This document shows positions 13,733-41,616 of a stretch of 64,000 bases of DNA, one piece after another. Numbering within the stretch: position 1 is the stretch's first letter; the number at the start of each line of letters is the position of its first letter. The DNA comes from an uncultured Gammaproteobacteria bacterium (GTDB taxonomy: Bacteria > Patescibacteriota > Patescibacteriia > Magasanikbacterales > UBA922), in the NCBI GenBank assembly GCA_964597575.1, contig CAZQXB010000001.1, forward strand, positions 64,964 through 128,963. Direction: 5' to 3'. The notes under the pieces were generated by a model that saw nothing but the letters and a program-made list of their open reading frames with translations, searched no databases and had not been told where the DNA came from. A program made the position numbers and the translations under genes.

Positions 13733-13815
13733 GCCGCGGTGATGAAATGGTATACATGAGGGACTTAAAATCCCTTGACCGCAAGGTCGTGCGGGTTCGA
13801 GTCCCGCCCGCGGCA
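13733..13815 (+). tRNA. tRNA-Leu (anticodon TAA)
   Basis: Acceptor GCCGCGG/CCGCGGC+A. Anticodon loop CTTAAAA. Long variable arm TGACCGCAAGGTCGT. T-arm GGGTTCGAGTCCC. CCA not encoded. Confidence 0.85.
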
Positions 13816-13821
13816 CAAATA

Positions 13822-13856
13822 AAATAAACATCCGTACGGATGTTTATTTTATTTTG
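13822..13856 (+). terminator. rho-independent terminator after tRNA-Leu
   Basis: Hairpin AAACATCCG-tac-CGGATGTTT followed by TATTTTATTTT. Confidence 0.6.
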
Positions 13857-13867
13857 TACTGCCTAAA

Positions 13868-14001
13868 GGGACTCGAACCGAAAGGGTTTGGGAAAACTGT
13901 TTGGCGGTTTTCCCACCTCGTGCAGGGGGATGGTTGGGAAGGGGTGGAAACCTCTTCCCAAGAGGAGTGGGGCGACGAGTGAGATGTCCCCGCCCGCGGC
14001 A
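13868..14001 (+). repeat. tRNA-trailer structured element E1: inverted T-arm copy, two hairpins, direct copy of the tRNA-Leu 3' end
   Basis: Starts GGGACTCGAACC, the reverse complement of the tRNA-Leu T-arm GGTTCGAGTCCC. Ends GTCCCCGCCCGCGGCA, a copy of the tRNA 3' end. Internal hairpins GGGAAAAC..GTTTTCCC and GGAAGGGG-tggaaa-CCTCTTCC (with a G.U). Followed by its own terminator at 14004-14044. Confidence 0.5.
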
Positions 14002-14098
14002 CGAATAAAAATAACTCCTACATGTAGGGGTTATTTTTATTCGTGCAGAATGTGGGACGAAGTTAGAGTTTTCATTTTAGAATTAGACTAGCAGTCTA

Positions 14099-14866
14099 CT
14101 AAATTCTTCTTGCTAAGTACCCCTTCATTAAATTCATTATACCGATATTTATTGATTCTATCGTTTTTTGAAAAGCTTTGTGGTATTCCTCAGGGTTAGT
14201 TTTTCCAGCTATATAGTTTTTATGGAAACCCGCGATTGCTGCGTCACAATAGAAATATCTAGTATCTACCATGCGATCCCCCCTTGAGTAAAATGCGCTT
14301 TTGTTCGCTTCACCTTCATCTTGTCTAGAAAAGAAATGATTGGCAAAACCATTACGTAGTTGGCCCCCTGAATTGTAGTAATGGAAGGAGCCGTTGTTTC
14401 TGATATCTTCAAGTATTCTGATGAAAACAGCGCCTGTTTGAGTAAGATTTTTTTTGTTTGCAACATCTATCAGCTGGTCCCAAATTTTTTTACTATCAGC
14501 ATTTAGCCTACTAAGAAGCCCATTAAACTCTGAGGACTCTATAACTCTACTTTGTTTTTTAATCAATATAAAAATTTCATAAACTGTAGAAGTGATCAAT
14601 CTCTCTAAGTGATTTTTCATACCACCAGATTCTCCCGCATCACAGCTAATGTCGGTTATATTTTTGTCTTTAAAGTATTTTTTGTATTGAATAAGATAAA
14701 AAAGCAAGCTTTTAAGATCATTGTATGCTAAGCCTAAAATAAGAAAAAAGGTATCAAAATCGTTCTTTCTTTCGGGCTTGATAATTTTTTTTGGATCAAA
14801 TTTTCTTATGTGTCCAGAAAAACCTTCTGTTCGCATACAATCTAGTTTAGAGTATTTAAAAAACAC
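14099..14866 (-). CDS. hypothetical protein (255 aa) in AT-rich island; possible HEPN-like Rx5H motif
   Basis: Long ORF in about 33% GC DNA. C-terminal region contains RNGFANH (Rx4-6H). No confident homology recognised. Confidence 0.55.
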   Translation of the reverse strand: MFFKYSKLDCMRTEGFSGHIRKFDPKKIIKPERKNDFDTFFLILGLAYNDLKSLLFYLIQYKKYFKDKNITDISCDAGESGGMKNHLERLITSTVYEIFILIKKQSRVIESSEFNGLLSRLNADSKKIWDQLIDVANKKNLTQTGAVFIRILEDIRNNGSFHYYNSGGQLRNGFANHFFSRQDEGEANKSAFYSRGDRMVDTRYFYCDAAIAGFHKNYIAGKTNPEEYHKAFQKTIESINIGIMNLMKGYLARRI

Positions 14867-15137
14867 ACGGTGAAAATGCTATCTGAAAAGCACTGTTTGA
14901 CCATTATGTATAGAGCTGTGTGTTATTGATAAGGTGATCATTTTTGGCTAATGTGTATCAAACTAAAATGTGGACAACTTTGACCAATAAGAGAGATTAA
15001 TGATTAAATTTATCTATACTTAGCAAAAAATTAAATTTGTCGATCTCCCCAGCGAGGTATTTTTTTCTGTGAGATACTACTATTGTACAAAAGTTACATC
15101 CTTTTGTCTGTAAAATTTACAGGGTTGATATAAAACT

Positions 15138-16340
15138 ATGAAAGTATTCTTATTAGGGGCTATTTTGGATAATGTCTGCTTTGAGAAAGCCGCACAAGTG
15201 ATAGATGGTCTTATCTATAATGATCTTACAAAAAAGGCAAGCATCGAGGCAGGTCTAGCTGACAGTGATTTTTTGATTGCTGACATTGGAAATATAAATA
15301 ATGTGCCACTTGCGCAAACTCTCAATGATAGTTGCCACCATATTGGACAGAGAATTGAGGGCGGTGGGGTCTTACTGTGTTTTTCTGGTAGGGAATTTAA
15401 TGACGGGCTGAATTATACTTGGCTTAAAAATATTGGCTTGAATCTTCTACCTGAAAACCTTCAGGCCAACGATATCCTTTTTAAGGGTAATTACCCATTT
15501 ATTACAGATTTTACACGGTATGTAAAACTTTTTTTTCATTCCGTGATTTTTCGCAATCAGTTTCAACTGCCCGCATATTGTAGTCAGATAGCATTAAATA
15601 AGAGTGGTAACTGCGCTGGGGTTTATTGGAAGCTAGGGAAGGGTCACATTTTTATTGTTCCCGACTGTCGTGATAAAAATTATTTTACAAAATTTTTTAT
15701 AGATACAATAATTCCAAAAATAGAAACCATTTTTGTTGTTGATGGCGGTAGTAAGGAGATGGTACCTAAAGAGATAAGTGGTTTAAAGGTCAAAGGTCAA
15801 TCAGACCTTGAAGTGCAGATTGAATCTCAAAAGTTAAAGATTGAAGAGGAGCAAAAAAAGCTTGTTATCTTGGAGAAACAGTTTGAAGAATTAGACGAGT
15901 GGAAACAGCTTTTATGGCAAACTGGAACACCGCTGGAAAACATTGTTAAAAAATTTTTTGAAGCTTTTGCGGGTCTTACTTTGGAAAAAAAGGAAACCGA
16001 TTTAGTGGGTGAATATAATGGAAAAGAACTTTTTATTGAAGTGAAAGGGAATGTTGGATGCATAAATCACAAAAGCGATTTTAGGCAAATAGAAGAGCGA
16101 AAAAATTACGATGCCAAAGATCCTCAAAATACCATTGCTTTGCTTGTGGGCAACCCTTTTCGTCTTCATCCTTTGGAAAAACGTCCGCCAGAAGCCGAGC
16201 ACCTTTTTGCCCATACATCTATTCCTATTGCAGAAAGGCTTGGTATCGGTCTAATTTGGACAAAAGAGCTTTTTGATATAGTTAATGATTTGCTTTTAAG
16301 TTCAGACCCTGATCAAAAAAACTTATTATTGACAAACTGA
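15138..16340 (+). CDS. hypothetical protein (400 aa): flavodoxin-like N-domain, central coiled coil, C-terminal PD-(D/E)xK-like motif
   Basis: beta-alpha-beta pattern (KVFLLG..DFLIAD..GGGVLLCF), heptad-rich segment LEVQIESQKLKIEEEQKKLVILEKQFEELDEW, then TDLVGEYNGKELFIEVKG (D...ExK). Confidence 0.55.
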   Translation: MKVFLLGAILDNVCFEKAAQVIDGLIYNDLTKKASIEAGLADSDFLIADIGNINNVPLAQTLNDSCHHIGQRIEGGGVLLCFSGREFNDGLNYTWLKNIGLNLLPENLQANDILFKGNYPFITDFTRYVKLFFHSVIFRNQFQLPAYCSQIALNKSGNCAGVYWKLGKGHIFIVPDCRDKNYFTKFFIDTIIPKIETIFVVDGGSKEMVPKEISGLKVKGQSDLEVQIESQKLKIEEEQKKLVILEKQFEELDEWKQLLWQTGTPLENIVKKFFEAFAGLTLEKKETDLVGEYNGKELFIEVKGNVGCINHKSDFRQIEERKNYDAKDPQNTIALLVGNPFRLHPLEKRPPEAEHLFAHTSIPIAERLGIGLIWTKELFDIVNDLLLSSDPDQKNLLLTN

Positions 16341-16406
16341 TCAATTTTGCCGGTGTTTTTAAGTATAAAAAGTAATTTTAATTTAAATACTAACCTCGCT
16401 TTGTAT

Positions 16407-16691
16407 ATGTCTAAGCTCTCTAAACCCAGTGTTGTTCTTGGTCAGTGGATAGATGTCGGTAACGATCCTGCGATTGAGGCAGTTGTTTCTCGTATTAATA
16501 AATTTAGTGTATTTGGAGATATAGAAATTGTCTTTATGAGTGGAGGCAAACCAGTTAATATAGATATTTTTTGGATAAATGATTGTTGGAGTTTGGAAAA
16601 GTCTGGTGCTGGTGGCTATGCAGAAGACTACCCTCGGCTAAATGAATTTGTAATGATTCTGAAAGAACATAGAAGGTACAGTGTCTCCTAG
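16407..16691 (+). CDS. hypothetical small protein (about 94 aa)
   Basis: The ORF-track start at 16347 is a TTG; the first ATG is at 16407. No recognisable motifs. Confidence 0.35.
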   Translation: MSKLSKPSVVLGQWIDVGNDPAIEAVVSRINKFSVFGDIEIVFMSGGKPVNIDIFWINDCWSLEKSGAGGYAEDYPRLNEFVMILKEHRRYSVS

Positions 16692-16973
16692 ATAAATTAT
16701 TAATTTAATTTTGTTTTTCGCATATTTAATCAACCGGAACCCATCAATCAGCTCAATAAGCCTATCTTCACAAAATAACCTGCCTCAAGAGGGAAATTGT
16801 TTGTTGTAACGGAGCATCCTTTTCGATTTGATAGTTCATTCGCGGCTGCTTCACAAAAATTTGCGTAATTCCAGCGTAAATTTTTATCGCTCATACCCGG
16901 CCGTTAAGCGGGGTTTGGGTCATATAAATTGTTGGTATGACCGTGTCATACTTTTTGCATGATCGGTAGCGCC

Positions 16974-17002
16974 TTGACTTTTTTAACGAAAAACACTATA
17001 CT
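16974..17002 (+). promoter_or_regulatory. promoter TTGACT-N17-TATACT
   Basis: Perfect -35 and -10 with 17-nt spacer. Followed by a roughly 80-nt leader with mutually exclusive stems (CGTCGTCGAA/TTCGACGAG and CGACGA/TCGTCG) before the RBS at 17071. Confidence 0.45.
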
Positions 17003-17084: not shown

Positions 17085-17348
17085 ATGGTGTTCGTAGAAT
17101 TCTTCTGCCCAATACCCATTTATAAGGGGGGCGATAAACGCTATTTCGTTGGTCAGAGCATCGAGGCCGTGCTCGCCGACACCAGGGGAGGGACCGAGTT
17201 TGCCTTCGAGACTTTTTCCTCTCACCGGGTGATCACGGAGGAGGAAGCACGCTCTCTCGGTTTGGGATTCCTGGACGAGGGAATCGCTGCCGTGCAAAAA
17301 AGAGGGTGCAAAAGCTACGCGCTCAAATGCGCACCCACCGGAGACTAG
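17085..17348 (+). CDS. hypothetical small protein (87 aa)
   Basis: Strong RBS GAGGAGGAG 6 nt upstream of the ATG. The overlapping minus-strand ORF 17061-17435 has no RBS or promoter support. Confidence 0.5.
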   Translation: MVFVEFFCPIPIYKGGDKRYFVGQSIEAVLADTRGGTEFAFETFSSHRVITEEEARSLGLGFLDEGIAAVQKRGCKSYALKCAPTGD

Positions 17349-17498
17349 TTCCAGCTCAACGATCCACGAGCGCCTGGCGAATATTTCGCTGGGCGCTTCT
17401 CTGTTTTTATATGAATCCTGACGATACTCTGACAAAATTTACCCCCTTGACGCACTCTTCCGACCGACGTACAGTAAAATATACTCATTATTTTTCGT

Positions 17499-21658: not shown

Positions 21659-22081
21659 TCATTTAGGCGGAAGGGCAATTAACTGGGCAATTTTATTAAC
21701 CGGATCTACTTCTAGTTTTACATTCCATGCCTCTAACATTTTTTGTCCAATTAAAATTCCGCAATCTGGTGAATTTGTAGGTGAATTCACAACTGCAAAA
21801 GATTTTCTACCAACCAACGAAACATTTCCGGCCGTATCGATTGAGCTTATGGTGGTACCATCTGCCAAAGTCCAGGTCCCAAAACTAGCCATTAACTCAA
21901 GTCCATTTTGCTGAACACTTTTAAATGGCATCATTAAGAAACCACTAAAACCCGTATCGATTTGACCTTCCCAGATATATCCTATGTGATTGGGGTCACC
22001 ATTGGGTACCAGATTCTCCAAGAGAAAAGGAAGTAAAATTTGTGTTCCTTCAAAACGACAGTTCGCAACTATTACCCTCAT
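21659..22081 (-). CDS. retropepsin-like (clan AA) aspartic protease
   Basis: QIDTGFSG active-site DTG motif plus a C-terminal GILIGQKML flap-like motif. 140 aa. Overlaps the upstream gene by ATGA. Confidence 0.55.
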   Translation of the reverse strand: MRVIVANCRFEGTQILLPFLLENLVPNGDPNHIGYIWEGQIDTGFSGFLMMPFKSVQQNGLELMASFGTWTLADGTTISSIDTAGNVSLVGRKSFAVVNSPTNSPDCGILIGQKMLEAWNVKLEVDPVNKIAQLIALPPK

Positions 22082-22293
22082 AAATTAAAAACAAAAGATA
22101 CCGCTTTCTGGTATTCTGGTCTGGATGTAATTTCATTCAATTTTGCAGGGTTATCTACCACTTCATGTCTTTTTAAATACGGAAAAACCACCACAGTTTT
22201 TCCTCTGTTTCGATCTTTGAAATTACCTCCCAAATCATCGAGGTATTGTTGAGAATCTCTTTGAGTTTTTATTGCTTCGTCTAAAATTGTCAT
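22078..22293 (-). CDS. hypothetical small protein (71 aa), translationally coupled to the aspartic protease gene
   Basis: 4-nt ATGA overlap with 21659-22081. No motifs recognised. Confidence 0.45.
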   Translation of the reverse strand: MTILDEAIKTQRDSQQYLDDLGGNFKDRNRGKTVVVFPYLKRHEVVDNPAKLNEITSRPEYQKAVSFVFNL

Positions 22294-22398
22294 ATAATTT
22301 TAATGGCTCAGCTCTTTTCCCAATATACTCTTAAAGAATCAAAAAAGCAACATGTGTAAAGACAGCCTCCTATGATTCATTAAGTCATTTTTCACACC

Positions 22399-22785
22399 CT
22401 ACTTTAAAAGTGCCCTTTGCATATACTCCTGCCTTTCTTCAATTCTATTCATATCGCGTGAAAAATCTATCCTTAATTCTGCATTATTTTCGATAACTTC
22501 ATTTATTTTGTCGTTTACTGAATCTTGTGTTTGATAATATGAAGCTTTCATCCCTGCCATGAAGATAACAACAGCAACTATTAAAGAAATAAATAAAAAT
22601 AACCCACCAATAATAACACCTATAAGAAGGTTATTCATTTTTCCAGAAAAACCTTCCACTTCTTTCCTAATATCTTCAAATTTTTTTTGAAAGACAGCTT
22701 CTGCAACATCGCCTGTTTTGGTTGCAGTATTCAAATCAATCATCGACTGCACCTCCTCCTGAGTTAGCTTTTTTCTAGGGGCCAT
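22399..22785 (-). CDS. small single-pass membrane protein with coiled-coil regions (128 aa)
   Basis: Central TM (LLIGVIIGGLFLFISLIVAVVIFMAG) flanked by charged helical segments. Confidence 0.5.
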   Translation of the reverse strand: MAPRKKLTQEEVQSMIDLNTATKTGDVAEAVFQKKFEDIRKEVEGFSGKMNNLLIGVIIGGLFLFISLIVAVVIFMAGMKASYYQTQDSVNDKINEVIENNAELRIDFSRDMNRIEERQEYMQRALLK

Positions 22786-22789
22786 ACAC

Positions 22790-23047
22790 TTACTTTCCTT
22801 GCGAAATTACCCCCACTATTTTATAGACAGTGTCATTATCTTCTAACTGCACAACTAAATCCAAGTAACGTAAAACATGAAAATCTATTCCTTCAATTTT
22901 CTCACCCTGACAAAATCTAGTATCTTTTTCTATTACACCATTGTTTCCTATTTTTATTTTTTCTTTAGTAATTAAAACATCATTCTTCTCTTCAGAAAAA
23001 ATATCTAGGAACCTCATTTTTATTTTCGTCTCTGTCGTTTCTGGCAT
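22790..23047 (-). CDS. hypothetical small protein (85 aa)
   Basis: The ORF-track start at 23089 is a TTG lying inside the 23065-23087 palindrome. First ATG at 23047 used instead. Confidence 0.4.
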   Translation of the reverse strand: MPETTETKIKMRFLDIFSEEKNDVLITKEKIKIGNNGVIEKDTRFCQGEKIEGIDFHVLRYLDLVVQLEDNDTVYKIVGVISQGK

Positions 23048-23064
23048 AGAAAAAACTAAATTTT

Positions 23065-23087
23065 GAGTGTATACTCTGTATACACTC
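23065..23087. repeat. palindrome GAGTGTATAC-TCT-GTATACACTC (variant of the dispersed GTATACAC palindrome family)
   Basis: 10-nt arms in perfect inverted orientation, between the transposase stop and the 22790 gene. Confidence 0.5.
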
Positions 23088-23151
23088 AAGTATACTCAAA
23101 CTATGAAAAAAATCAACCCGCAATCCACCTTTCACTCCCTCCTCCACAAAG

Positions 23152-23994
23152 CTATCTCACCACCCGCGAAAGCAAAGCCGGGAAAATTGGGATCCCCGAC
23201 CGCAGGCAGTTATACCGGAAAACAGCCTCGTTCACGTACCACTGGAGCCACTTCCCGGAAATCCAATGGTGGCACCGGTAAAGCTTCTTAAGCTGAGACC
23301 AAAATCCCTCAATACCATTCGTAGATACGTTCCCCCGAACGTATTCTCTTTTACTGTGGCATACTGAAAAATGGTTATATCGCCTACCTAAGTCATCATA
23401 TGAATGGCTTTCATCGGTCATAACATCGGACGCCCAATCAATAACCGAAAAGATATACTTCGATAAGGTAAGTTTCTGAATGTCCCGCACCACCACAGCA
23501 AACACCTTTCCCTCTCGTTTCAGAATCCCGAACACAGGGATTTTGTTTTTTCTCCAGCCACACCCACCTGCTCTGCGGGTTTTCCCTCCAATAAACGTTT
23601 CATCCGCCTCAAACACCCCTTCTGATTTCTCCATATCCTGCTCCATAAGCTCACGAATCTTGTGACCCATACGCCAGGCGGTCTTATAAGTTACCCCTAA
23701 CACCCTCTGCAACTCCTTTGCCGGGACACCCCGGCGCGTTTGTGAGAATAGGTATATACTAAGAAACCACAGTTTTAGGGATGTAGAGGACTTATTGAAA
23801 ATCGTGTCGGAGAGTGGATCTATCTGGTAGCCACAAGCACAGGCATAGGTCTTACGACCCTCTACCCTATAGAACTTGTTCTTGAGACACTTTGGACAGA
23901 GGTGACCTTCCCCATATTTATACTTAAAAACGTACTCTAGGCAGGCATCATCGTCCGGAAATTGTTTATTAAATTGAGAGATAGAATACTTCAT
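23152..23994 (-). CDS. IS1595-family (ISXO2-like) transposase
   Basis: N-terminal transposase zinc ribbon (HLCPKC...CACGYQ) and the DDE_Tnp_IS1595 domain. C-terminal ...WYVNEAVFRYN motif typical of the family. Confidence 0.9.
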   Translation of the reverse strand: MKYSISQFNKQFPDDDACLEYVFKYKYGEGHLCPKCLKNKFYRVEGRKTYACACGYQIDPLSDTIFNKSSTSLKLWFLSIYLFSQTRRGVPAKELQRVLGVTYKTAWRMGHKIRELMEQDMEKSEGVFEADETFIGGKTRRAGGCGWRKNKIPVFGILKREGKVFAVVVRDIQKLTLSKYIFSVIDWASDVMTDESHSYDDLGRRYNHFSVCHSKREYVRGNVSTNGIEGFWSQLKKLYRCHHWISGKWLQWYVNEAVFRYNCLRSGIPIFPALLSRVVR

Positions 23995-24000
23995 AAATTA

Positions 24001-24412: not shown

Positions 24413-24804
24413 TGAGTTATTCACAGGCTAAAAAAGTTATTCACTCACATGTGGACAAATCTGTGCATAAAATACACCGACAATAAGTACTACAAAGTAG
24501 GCTGTTTCATGTGAAACACTCCATGAGGGGAATCTCGGAAAAAGACTCATACGCAATCTGCTATCTCTTTTAGAGATTAGGGTGAGAGTATGTACTTAGT
24601 GGAAAACCAAAGTCAGTGTTCAATTCTGCTTTACCCAAAAATCATTATCTACACTGCCGCCCCAAGGATAAACTGTATAGGCGTAGTGTCCATCTTTAGA
24701 AAGCCGAAAAAATGCAAAGTACGCTACAAATCTAAAAACCAAAAAAACCTCACACCGGGGCACGGGCAGGTAGTGTTCCAAGCAAAAGAAAACGATGTAC
24801 AGTG

Positions 24805-24876
24805 TGGCCTCACCACGAATCGAACGTGGATTTAGACGTTAGGAGTGTCTCGTTCTATCCATTGAACTATGGGGCC
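24805..24876 (-). tRNA. tRNA-Arg (anticodon CCT), with C5-A68 and A31-C39 mismatches
   Basis: Minus-strand cloverleaf GGCCCCA...TGAGGCCA. Anticodon loop CTCCTAA. T-arm CCACGTTCGATTCGTGG. Two stem mismatches, so possibly a degenerating copy. Confidence 0.55.
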
Positions 24877-41357: not shown

Positions 41358-41406
41358 TAAAATAAGTACTCTCCCTTGTGGGGAGTATTTATTTTATTCG
41401 TGTTAC

Positions 41407-41541
41407 GGCCAGGATTGAACTAAGGGAAAGTTTGAAAACCGATAGGTTTTCACTTCTGCTAGGGGAAGGTTAGGAAGGGGTGGAAACCCCTTCCTAAGAG
41501 TCTGAATTTTATTCAGAGGAGTGAAATCCTGGCCCGCGGCA
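41407..41541 (+). repeat. tRNA-trailer structured element E2 (tRNA-Phe): inverted T-arm copy, two hairpins, direct 3'-end copy
   Basis: Starts GGCCAGGATTGAACT, the exact reverse complement of tRNA-Phe AGTTCAATCCTGGCC. Ends ATCCTGGCCCGCGGCA, a copy of the tRNA 3' end. Hairpins GAAAACC-gata-GGTTTTC and GGAAGGGG-tggaaa-CCCCTTCC. Own terminator at 41545-41578. Confidence 0.5.
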
Positions 41542-41616
41542 CTGACAAACAAGACTGTTACGGTCTTGTTTTGTTTTACGGAAAAGAAGCTTGTAAACAG
41601 AAAGGGGGCTTGCCCC

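Follow-up and report, generated by a model that had tools for sequence, protein, structure and literature searches.

The 64,000-nucleotide window analysed here (positions 64,964 to 128,963 of contig CAZQXB010000001.1, assembly GCA_964597575.1) contains a short AT-rich islet next to a tRNA-Leu gene, on which two divergently oriented open reading frames (ORFs), genes A and B, are followed by a third, small one, ORF C. The region is best explained as a small islet that was acquired horizontally and carries two unrelated, self-contained nuclease genes and an orphan ORF. On balance, A and B are probably both nucleases of the conflict or defence type and represent two independent single-gene candidates. 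The case for A relies on an invariant Arg-His pair in a large family of helical proteins, and the case for B on a predicted PD-(D/E)xK domain with conserved catalytic residues. Features are listed below by position in the window.

13733..13816, plus strand: tRNA-Leu(taa), the left border of the islet (ARAGORN; Rfam tRNA model, 59.6 bits)
13855..14046, plus strand: structured element between tRNA-Leu and the islet (repeats, predicted fold, second copy after tRNA-Phe)
14050..16950, no strand: AT-rich islet, borders approximate (composition)
14099..14836, minus strand: gene A, 245 aa from M11, in an ORF reaching GTG 14866 (homologues, public gene calls)
14837..15137, no strand: AT-rich divergent intergenic region of 301 bp common to A and B (sequence)
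15138..16340, plus strand: gene B, 400 aa (AlphaFold model, homologue alignment, Foldseek)
16407..16691, plus strand: ORF C, 94 aa, or 114 aa from TTG 16347 (called in public assemblies)

Gene A was initially annotated as encoding 255 aa; its homologues and the public gene calls start at M11, which shortens the protein to 245 aa. An exhaustive profile search recovered 709 representative clusters (50% identity) at E ≤1e-10, a number that rises to 880 at E ≤1e-3; six clusters are close homologues. Nearly all members are about 245 aa long, single-domain and matched over their full length; in the longer ones, DUF5681 and a SEC-C motif are the only fused domains, and they are uninformative. In one alignment of 133 diverse members, on which all conservation counts for A are based, R146 and H152 are the only invariant columns (133/133 each), while N39 (132/133), K42 (129/133), E87 (126/133), R193 (130/133) and D198 (130/133) are near-invariant. 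The position after R146 is polar in 118 of the 133 members (N in 68, S in 28, H in 14, D in 8). R146 and H152 delimit the motif RNNGSFH (Rx5H). The initial annotation had proposed a HEPN-type Rx4-6H motif in A and cited RNGFANH, which lies 14 residues downstream of RNNGSFH; an invariant motif of this type is present, but RNGFANH retains its R in 55 and its H in 34 of 133 members and was dropped as the catalytic motif. Gene A is intact and has all family-invariant residues.

On helix 2 of HEPN proteins a further acidic residue is conserved, typically as part of Ex3[KR], and the active site of known HEPN enzymes is built across a dimer. The superfamily is defined by an all-alpha domain with a conserved Rx4-6H, whose R is usually followed directly by a polar residue (N, D or H); the motif sits at the end of core helix 3 and the start of the loop to helix 4 (Anantharaman et al. 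2013, PMC3710099). The AlphaFold (AF2) model of A, computed from the family alignment, has a predicted local distance difference test (pLDDT) score of 96.1 and a predicted template modelling (pTM) score of 0.91 and is entirely helical. It places R146 in the last turn of helix 133–150 and H152 in the loop that follows, before the next helix (157–170), and E87 on a long helix (65–94) with a hydrophobic residue, not K or R, at +4. Motif, motif context and fold class of A fit HEPN, the fold and the position of the motif being read from the predicted structure.

No significant profile or structural similarity between A and an established HEPN family was found. A together with the 133 family members had no consistent match in Pfam and PADLOC, nor had A itself in NCBIfam and PHROGs, and a PDB sequence-profile search with the family returned nothing. 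Foldseek searches of the model against PDB and BFVD gave nothing significant (best E ~0.4), and HEPN toxins (8yuf, 8xdj) and a MAE_28990-like HEPN protein were among the matches at E ~1–2 only. Because significant matches were lacking, we infer HEPN membership and use the term HEPN-like for the mechanism: A is a candidate HEPN-like metal-independent endoribonuclease, as judged from its alignment and model. A 262-aa protein with a weak HEPN_Cthe2314 match, encoded beside an A homologue (locus L006), was considered as a relative of A and rejected as unrelated by hhalign with the A profile.

The 400-aa product of gene B has 17 homologous clusters (38–53% identity). Its AF2 model (pLDDT 87.6; ~84–92 in the C-terminal domain) shows three parts, in agreement with the initial annotation, which had described a flavodoxin-like N-domain, a coiled coil and a D...ExK nuclease-like C-terminus. 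Residues 1–195 adopt a GATase1-like fold (class-I glutamine-amidotransferase-like, itself flavodoxin-like), with Foldseek PDB matches at E 2e-5 to 1e-3 that include the GH42 central domain, STM3548 (2gk3), STM1381 (3soz), GMP synthase subunit A (2a9v) and PabA (8hx8). The would-be nucleophile C80 is replaced by V or A in two homologues and H170 by Y in two, so that neither column is invariant and the N-domain is probably non-catalytic. As the Cys-His-Glu triad is not conserved, B was not filed as an amidotransferase, and an active enzyme of this kind was ruled out. Residues 221–259 form a single helix of 39 residues in the model.

In the C-terminal domain of B (residues 263–390), DSSP assigned on the model a helix (263–278), three strands (283–285, 288–293 and 296–303), a further helix (316–325) and a strand (333–338). 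The predicted order of elements in 263–338 is, in topology, the alpha-beta-beta-beta-alpha-beta core of PD-(D/E)xK nucleases. B contains TDLVGEYNGKELFIEVKG, and E267, D288 and E301-V-K303 are invariant among the 17 homologues; the first helix bears E267, the second strand opens with D288 and the third carries E301-V-K303. Fold core and catalytic residues of a PD-(D/E)xK domain are accordingly both present, the former in the predicted structure and the latter in the 17-homologue alignment. Gene B is intact and has retained all family-invariant residues. B and the 17 family members had no match in Pfam, PADLOC or NCBIfam, and B had none in PHROGs. The PDB profile search with the B family found nothing, the C-domain included, and none of these searches gave significant similarity to a known PD-(D/E)xK family.

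The initial annotation had found neither a housekeeping function nor a known system among the three ORFs. This agrees with our searches, in which A and B had no family match and no housekeeping structural match, and PADLOC recognised none of A, B, C or the A and B families. Confident structural matches to housekeeping enzymes, or a loss of the predicted catalytic residues in homologues, had been named there as grounds for giving up the assignment; no such match appeared and the catalytic residues are conserved in homologues of both proteins, but for A this applies to another instance of the HEPN motif than the one originally cited.

For the genomic context we collected DNA around homologues from metagenomes and species-representative genomes (43 loci, referred to by L numbers, with flanks of 6–8 kb) and searched every ORF with the A and B profiles by hmmsearch, which yielded ~19 distinct A loci and ~14 distinct B loci (~33). 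Sixteen species-representative genomes carry A; they are mostly metagenome-assembled genomes (MAGs) of Saccharibacteria and Paceibacterota/Parcubacteria, with one Flavobacteriaceae MAG and one Gammaproteobacteria MAG. Neighbours of A include genes of restriction-modification (R-M) type, namely the Type I specificity subunit HsdS, Eco57I-type, Dcm and Dam methylases and AlwI and DpnI-like enzymes, as well as DUF2726, HNH and PDDEXK_5 nucleases, T5orf172-ResIII, the toxins PemK and YafQ, and an IS1595 transposase (L009). A homologues directly adjoin tRNA-Ser (L013), tRNA-Ile (L018) and tmRNA (L022), comparable to the tRNA-Leu region here. In this setting A homologues behave like solitary mobile cargo of defence islands. 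The sole recurrent neighbour is a NUDIX hydrolase of ~140 aa, which is found one to three genes downstream of A in 4 of 19 loci and is absent from the window:

L005, 2970-3404: NUDIX hydrolase beside the A homologue
L009, 1545-1961: NUDIX hydrolase beside the A homologue
L016, 8770-9201: NUDIX hydrolase beside the A homologue
L017, 3382-3822: NUDIX hydrolase beside the A homologue

Separately, in two loci (L016, 5913-7952; L005, 35-1696) a large protein combining GIY-YIG, a Schlafen-group-3 helicase and Peptidase_S24 is encoded directly upstream of the A homologue; this architecture is unusual and defence-like.

B homologues were found after BREX (bacteriophage exclusion) PglZ/BrxL genes (L031), between RadC and HNH_2/Vsr (L039) and near a phage integrase (L042); in L040 the homologue overlaps an AAA_15 ATPase gene at its start, and Mrr_cat, HNH and an rve integrase come next. 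On a metagenomic contig of ~0.95 Mb (L001, 4930-5982), a B homologue and an upstream HATPase_c/DUF4325 (STAS-like) gene form a joint insertion in a purine operon, between purH and guaA. No gene family recurs beside B in the ~14 distinct loci, and the distribution of B is that of solitary insertion. Overall, R-M, BREX, toxin-antitoxin and transposase or integrase genes are often found around homologues of both A and B. In L032 (1487-2723) the homologue is split into two overlapping frames (1487-1801 and 1728-2723) and is either a frameshifted pseudogene or an assembly error.

The ORF list of the window contains the three ORFs of the initial annotation (A, 14099-14866, minus strand; B, 15138-16340, plus strand; C, 16347-16691, plus strand), which had been taken together as a candidate defence gene set. 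The neighbourhoods do not bear this out. Families A and B occur together only in the genome of the window itself (hmmsearch of the 43 loci; tblastn), no gene family is recurrent beside B, and ORF C is an orphan: among 5.8 billion clusters only C itself was found, tblastn detected no homologue in the fetched loci, and Pfam, PADLOC, NCBIfam and PHROGs had no family match. Since A and B do not co-occur in the other loci and C is an orphan, a conserved three-gene system is rejected and the islet genes are regarded as independent. C is a putative gene, with no support other than its open frame and the gene-finder calls. Its 94-aa form, described initially as following B after a 6-nt gap, does exist, but starts at ATG 16407, 66 nt past the B stop; the 6-nt gap belongs to the 114-aa form that starts at TTG 16347. 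Promoter-like matches in the intergenic region between A and B (14837-15137) were weak and not above shuffled expectation.

The proposal that this DNA is compositionally foreign agrees with its base composition. GC contents of the three 1-kb bins in 14001–17000 are 0.335, 0.353 and 0.363, while other bins mostly have 0.43–0.50, and ~14050–16950 has values of 0.30–0.41 compared to ~0.45 window-wide. A 200-nt scan gave GC ≤0.41 across ~14000–16900 and then a rise to 0.52–0.57, which sets the size of the islet at ~2.9 kb. The flanking genes are housekeeping genes (glucose-6-phosphate isomerase, a fused transketolase, glutamate dehydrogenase), and the gene arrangement around the islet is identical in an independent public assembly. 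The genome contig measures 913,817 bp. The tRNA-Leu(taa) gene adjoining the island at 13733-13816 was absent from the initial annotation.

Several observations weigh against two mobile nuclease genes of defence type. The islet has no integrase or transposase among its ORFs in the window ORF list, and a third copy of the tRNA-Leu 3' end, sought as a right-hand attachment (att) site, was not found, nor was a flanking direct repeat. A had no match by tblastn against plasmid and phage records or by profile against IMG/VR viral contigs, and B had none by tblastn against plasmid records or by profile against IMG/VR; with neither family in the viral, phage or plasmid records searched, mobility is supported only indirectly. 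FtsH, SmpB and CTP synthase genes are also neighbours of A, two B homologues (L003, L032) are flanked by housekeeping genes only, and the defence-type neighbours of A and B constitute a listing without background comparison in which many neighbours are plain housekeeping genes. With regard to B, the nuclease fold of the C-domain rests on its motif and predicted topology: all 50 Foldseek PDB matches listed are to the N-domain and none among them is to the C-domain. Four distant relatives (22–26% identity) keep E267, D288 and E301 and have E, G or V in place of K303.

Among the alternatives, it is conceivable, if unlikely, that only B is a nuclease, which would then be either a selfish homing-type enzyme or a restriction endonuclease that works alone and depends on modification (Type IV-like), and that A is an unrelated helical protein using its Arg and His for a non-nuclease role, for instance ligand or nucleic-acid binding or regulation. 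B is never found with a methyltransferase partner, yet its ExK site is intact, and the lack of a significant structural match of A to HEPN would be consistent with this view. Against it, A bears the HEPN signature, an invariant R-x5-H that has a polar residue after R and is placed where a helix ends and a loop follows, and the neighbourhoods of A are rich in R-M and toxin-antitoxin (TA) genes. To our knowledge, the GATase1-like fold is not a reader of modified DNA, which counts against a Type IV-like role of B.

A second alternative, to which we give somewhat less credence still, is that an element integrated long ago has left these genes behind as decaying cargo with no current function, or that at least one of them is a housekeeping accessory gene of small-genome bacteria. 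Besides the missing integrase, transposase and att repeats, this would account for homologues that lie between purH and guaA, TyrRS/TrpRS and gmk, or LeuRS and xth, or beside FtsH or SmpB, and for the apparently frameshifted B homologue in L032. Both ORFs are intact, however, with each family-invariant residue present, and a patchy spread over MAGs of Saccharibacteria, Paceibacterota, Flavobacteriaceae and Gammaproteobacteria, in which the neighbours change, is unlike that of a housekeeping gene. It is very improbable that in this lineage alone the three genes work as a single module, for example a toxin and its partner, or two nucleases kept in check by a small immunity protein: all of them share the same 2.9-kb AT-rich segment, A and B diverge from a common intergenic region of 301 bp and C lies behind B in the same orientation, but the two families are never together in the other loci (~19 for A, ~14 for B), C has no homologue and no gene family recurs beside B. 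That genes adjoin each other in a single AT-rich islet does not count as evidence of a system, and in this case the module could be rejected with data.

We thus favour A and B as two independent nucleases. Composition, the tRNA border, family sizes, conserved residues, predicted folds, the lack of a conserved partner and the kinds of neighbours in other genomes are observed; from there we infer an RNase activity for A, a DNase activity for B, dimerisation, regulation and an anti-phage or conflict role. A would cleave RNA independently of metal through the pair Arg146/His152, in an active site made up of these two residues, the polar residue after the Arg and probably Glu87 from the preceding long helix. 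It would probably act as a dimer, like other HEPN enzymes, and might be a single-gene abortive-infection or toxin-type RNase that is kept inactive until triggered. B could be a dimeric DNA endonuclease, whose C-terminal PD-(D/E)xK domain would cut through the ExK site. Its 39-residue helix would pair two subunits, and the presumably catalytically dead GATase-like N-domain could gate cutting, either by sensing or by oligomerisation. A bolder version is possible, which we put forward tentatively and with considerable doubt: A would found a large and as yet unnamed clade of Arg/His RNases, HEPN-like or convergent (at 50% identity, at least 880 clusters, especially in Saccharibacteria and Paceibacterota), that act as single-gene abortive-infection effectors in reduced genomes, and B would represent a new architecture, in which a dead GATase-like sensor licenses a coiled-coil-dimerised PD-(D/E)xK nuclease.

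The element between tRNA-Leu and the islet (13855-14046) opens with an inverted copy of the tRNA-Leu T-arm, continues with a conserved hairpin core and closes with the final 14 nt of tRNA-Leu in direct copy (13989-14002), followed by a terminator-like hairpin (13999-14046). A second copy is located downstream of tRNA-Phe at ~41398-41543 (region 41398-41590). Both elements, each of ~150 nt, come after the terminator hairpin of their own tRNA, begin with the inverted T-arm of that tRNA and end with a direct copy of its last 14 nt (spacing 186 or 187 nt). The conserved core GGTTRGGAAGGGGTGGAAACCYCTTCC occurs exactly twice in the window. The two copies have similar multi-hairpin folds closed by a long stem (z = -3.0 and -7.3), and their hairpin sequences differ with pairing retained. 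Rfam had no match for either copy; the element could be a small RNA, a tRNA-targeting mini-element or an att remnant.

Outside the islet, a GC-rich patch (0.52–0.57) between its right border and gdh contains an 87-aa ORF (17085-17348, plus strand) whose ribosome-binding site, GGAGGAG, is strong. The sequence TTGACT-17-TATACT at 16974-17002 resembles a promoter and a hairpin at 17368-17398 a terminator, so that the ORF has the look of a small, independent gene without assigned function. There is another low-GC stretch at 22001–24000 (GC 0.329 at 22001–23000), beside which a 280-aa ORF (23152-23994, minus strand) resembles, by eye, an IS1595/ISXO2-type transposase in its N-terminal Cys pairs and DETFIGG motif; a tRNA-Arg is close by at 24804-24876.

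The islet resembles tRNA-linked genomic islands in that it is low in GC and begins directly behind a tRNA gene, with a duplicate of the tRNA 3' end close by, and in that homologous cargo adjoins tRNA or tmRNA genes in other genomes. It differs in being only 2.9 kb long and integrase-free, with no repeat at the far border, and the duplicated tRNA end brackets the 150-nt structured element, not the islet.

Single-gene HEPN and PD-(D/E)xK effectors are well-known kinds. Like stand-alone HEPN RNases such as AbiD/AbiF (Abi_2), AbiU2, AbiV-HEPN and ApeA (PMC3710099), A is small, all-helical and single-domain, with an invariant Rx5H at a helix end and loop start, a polar residue after the R and a solitary gene embedded among R-M and TA genes; the conserved Glu on the preceding long helix may be a further parallel. 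In contrast to these, no Pfam HEPN model detects the 133 A members, PADLOC has no match, and Foldseek matched the model significantly to neither solved nor viral HEPN structures. A also departs from the HEPN definition with its approximately seven helices and the near-invariant residues N39, D40, K42, W119, R193 and D198. New in A is a large family without annotation, in which two residues make up the invariant signature and no tie to existing HEPN models is detectable. If A is confirmed, the defence inventory would gain a large family of uncharacterised nucleases. The family is widespread in ultra-small bacteria of the candidate phyla radiation (CPR), in which immunity is poorly understood, and offers a clean two-residue catalytic hypothesis that is easily tested.

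Single-protein PD-(D/E)xK defence nucleases with an N-terminal sensor include Shedu SduA/DUF4263, the Card1/Can2 CARF-nucleases and Mrr-type Type IV enzymes. B shares with them an N-terminal, probably non-catalytic alpha/beta domain and a predicted C-terminal E...D...ExK domain, a size of ~400 aa, a probably oligomeric state, the lack of a methyltransferase partner and defence-island contexts. It differs from them in that its N-domain is GATase1-like and not a CARF domain, a Shedu N-domain or a modified-base reader, in the 39-residue helix that joins its two domains, and in having no Pfam or PADLOC match, including DUF4263 and Mrr_cat, and none to such enzymes among the 50 Foldseek PDB matches listed. 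A literature search combining a GATase-like domain, restriction endonuclease and anti-phage found no paper. Non-catalytic GATase1-like domains (the GH42 central domain, 2gk3, 3soz) match residues 1–195 of B in fold (E 2e-5 to 9e-4), and B, like them, has no conserved Cys-His-Glu triad; these domains belong to glycosidases or stand alone, and none is fused to a nuclease. The architecture of B, with a GATase1-like domain, a helix and a predicted PD-(D/E)xK domain, is new and undescribed and, if confirmed, would show a new way of wiring a PD-(D/E)xK nuclease to a sensor domain.

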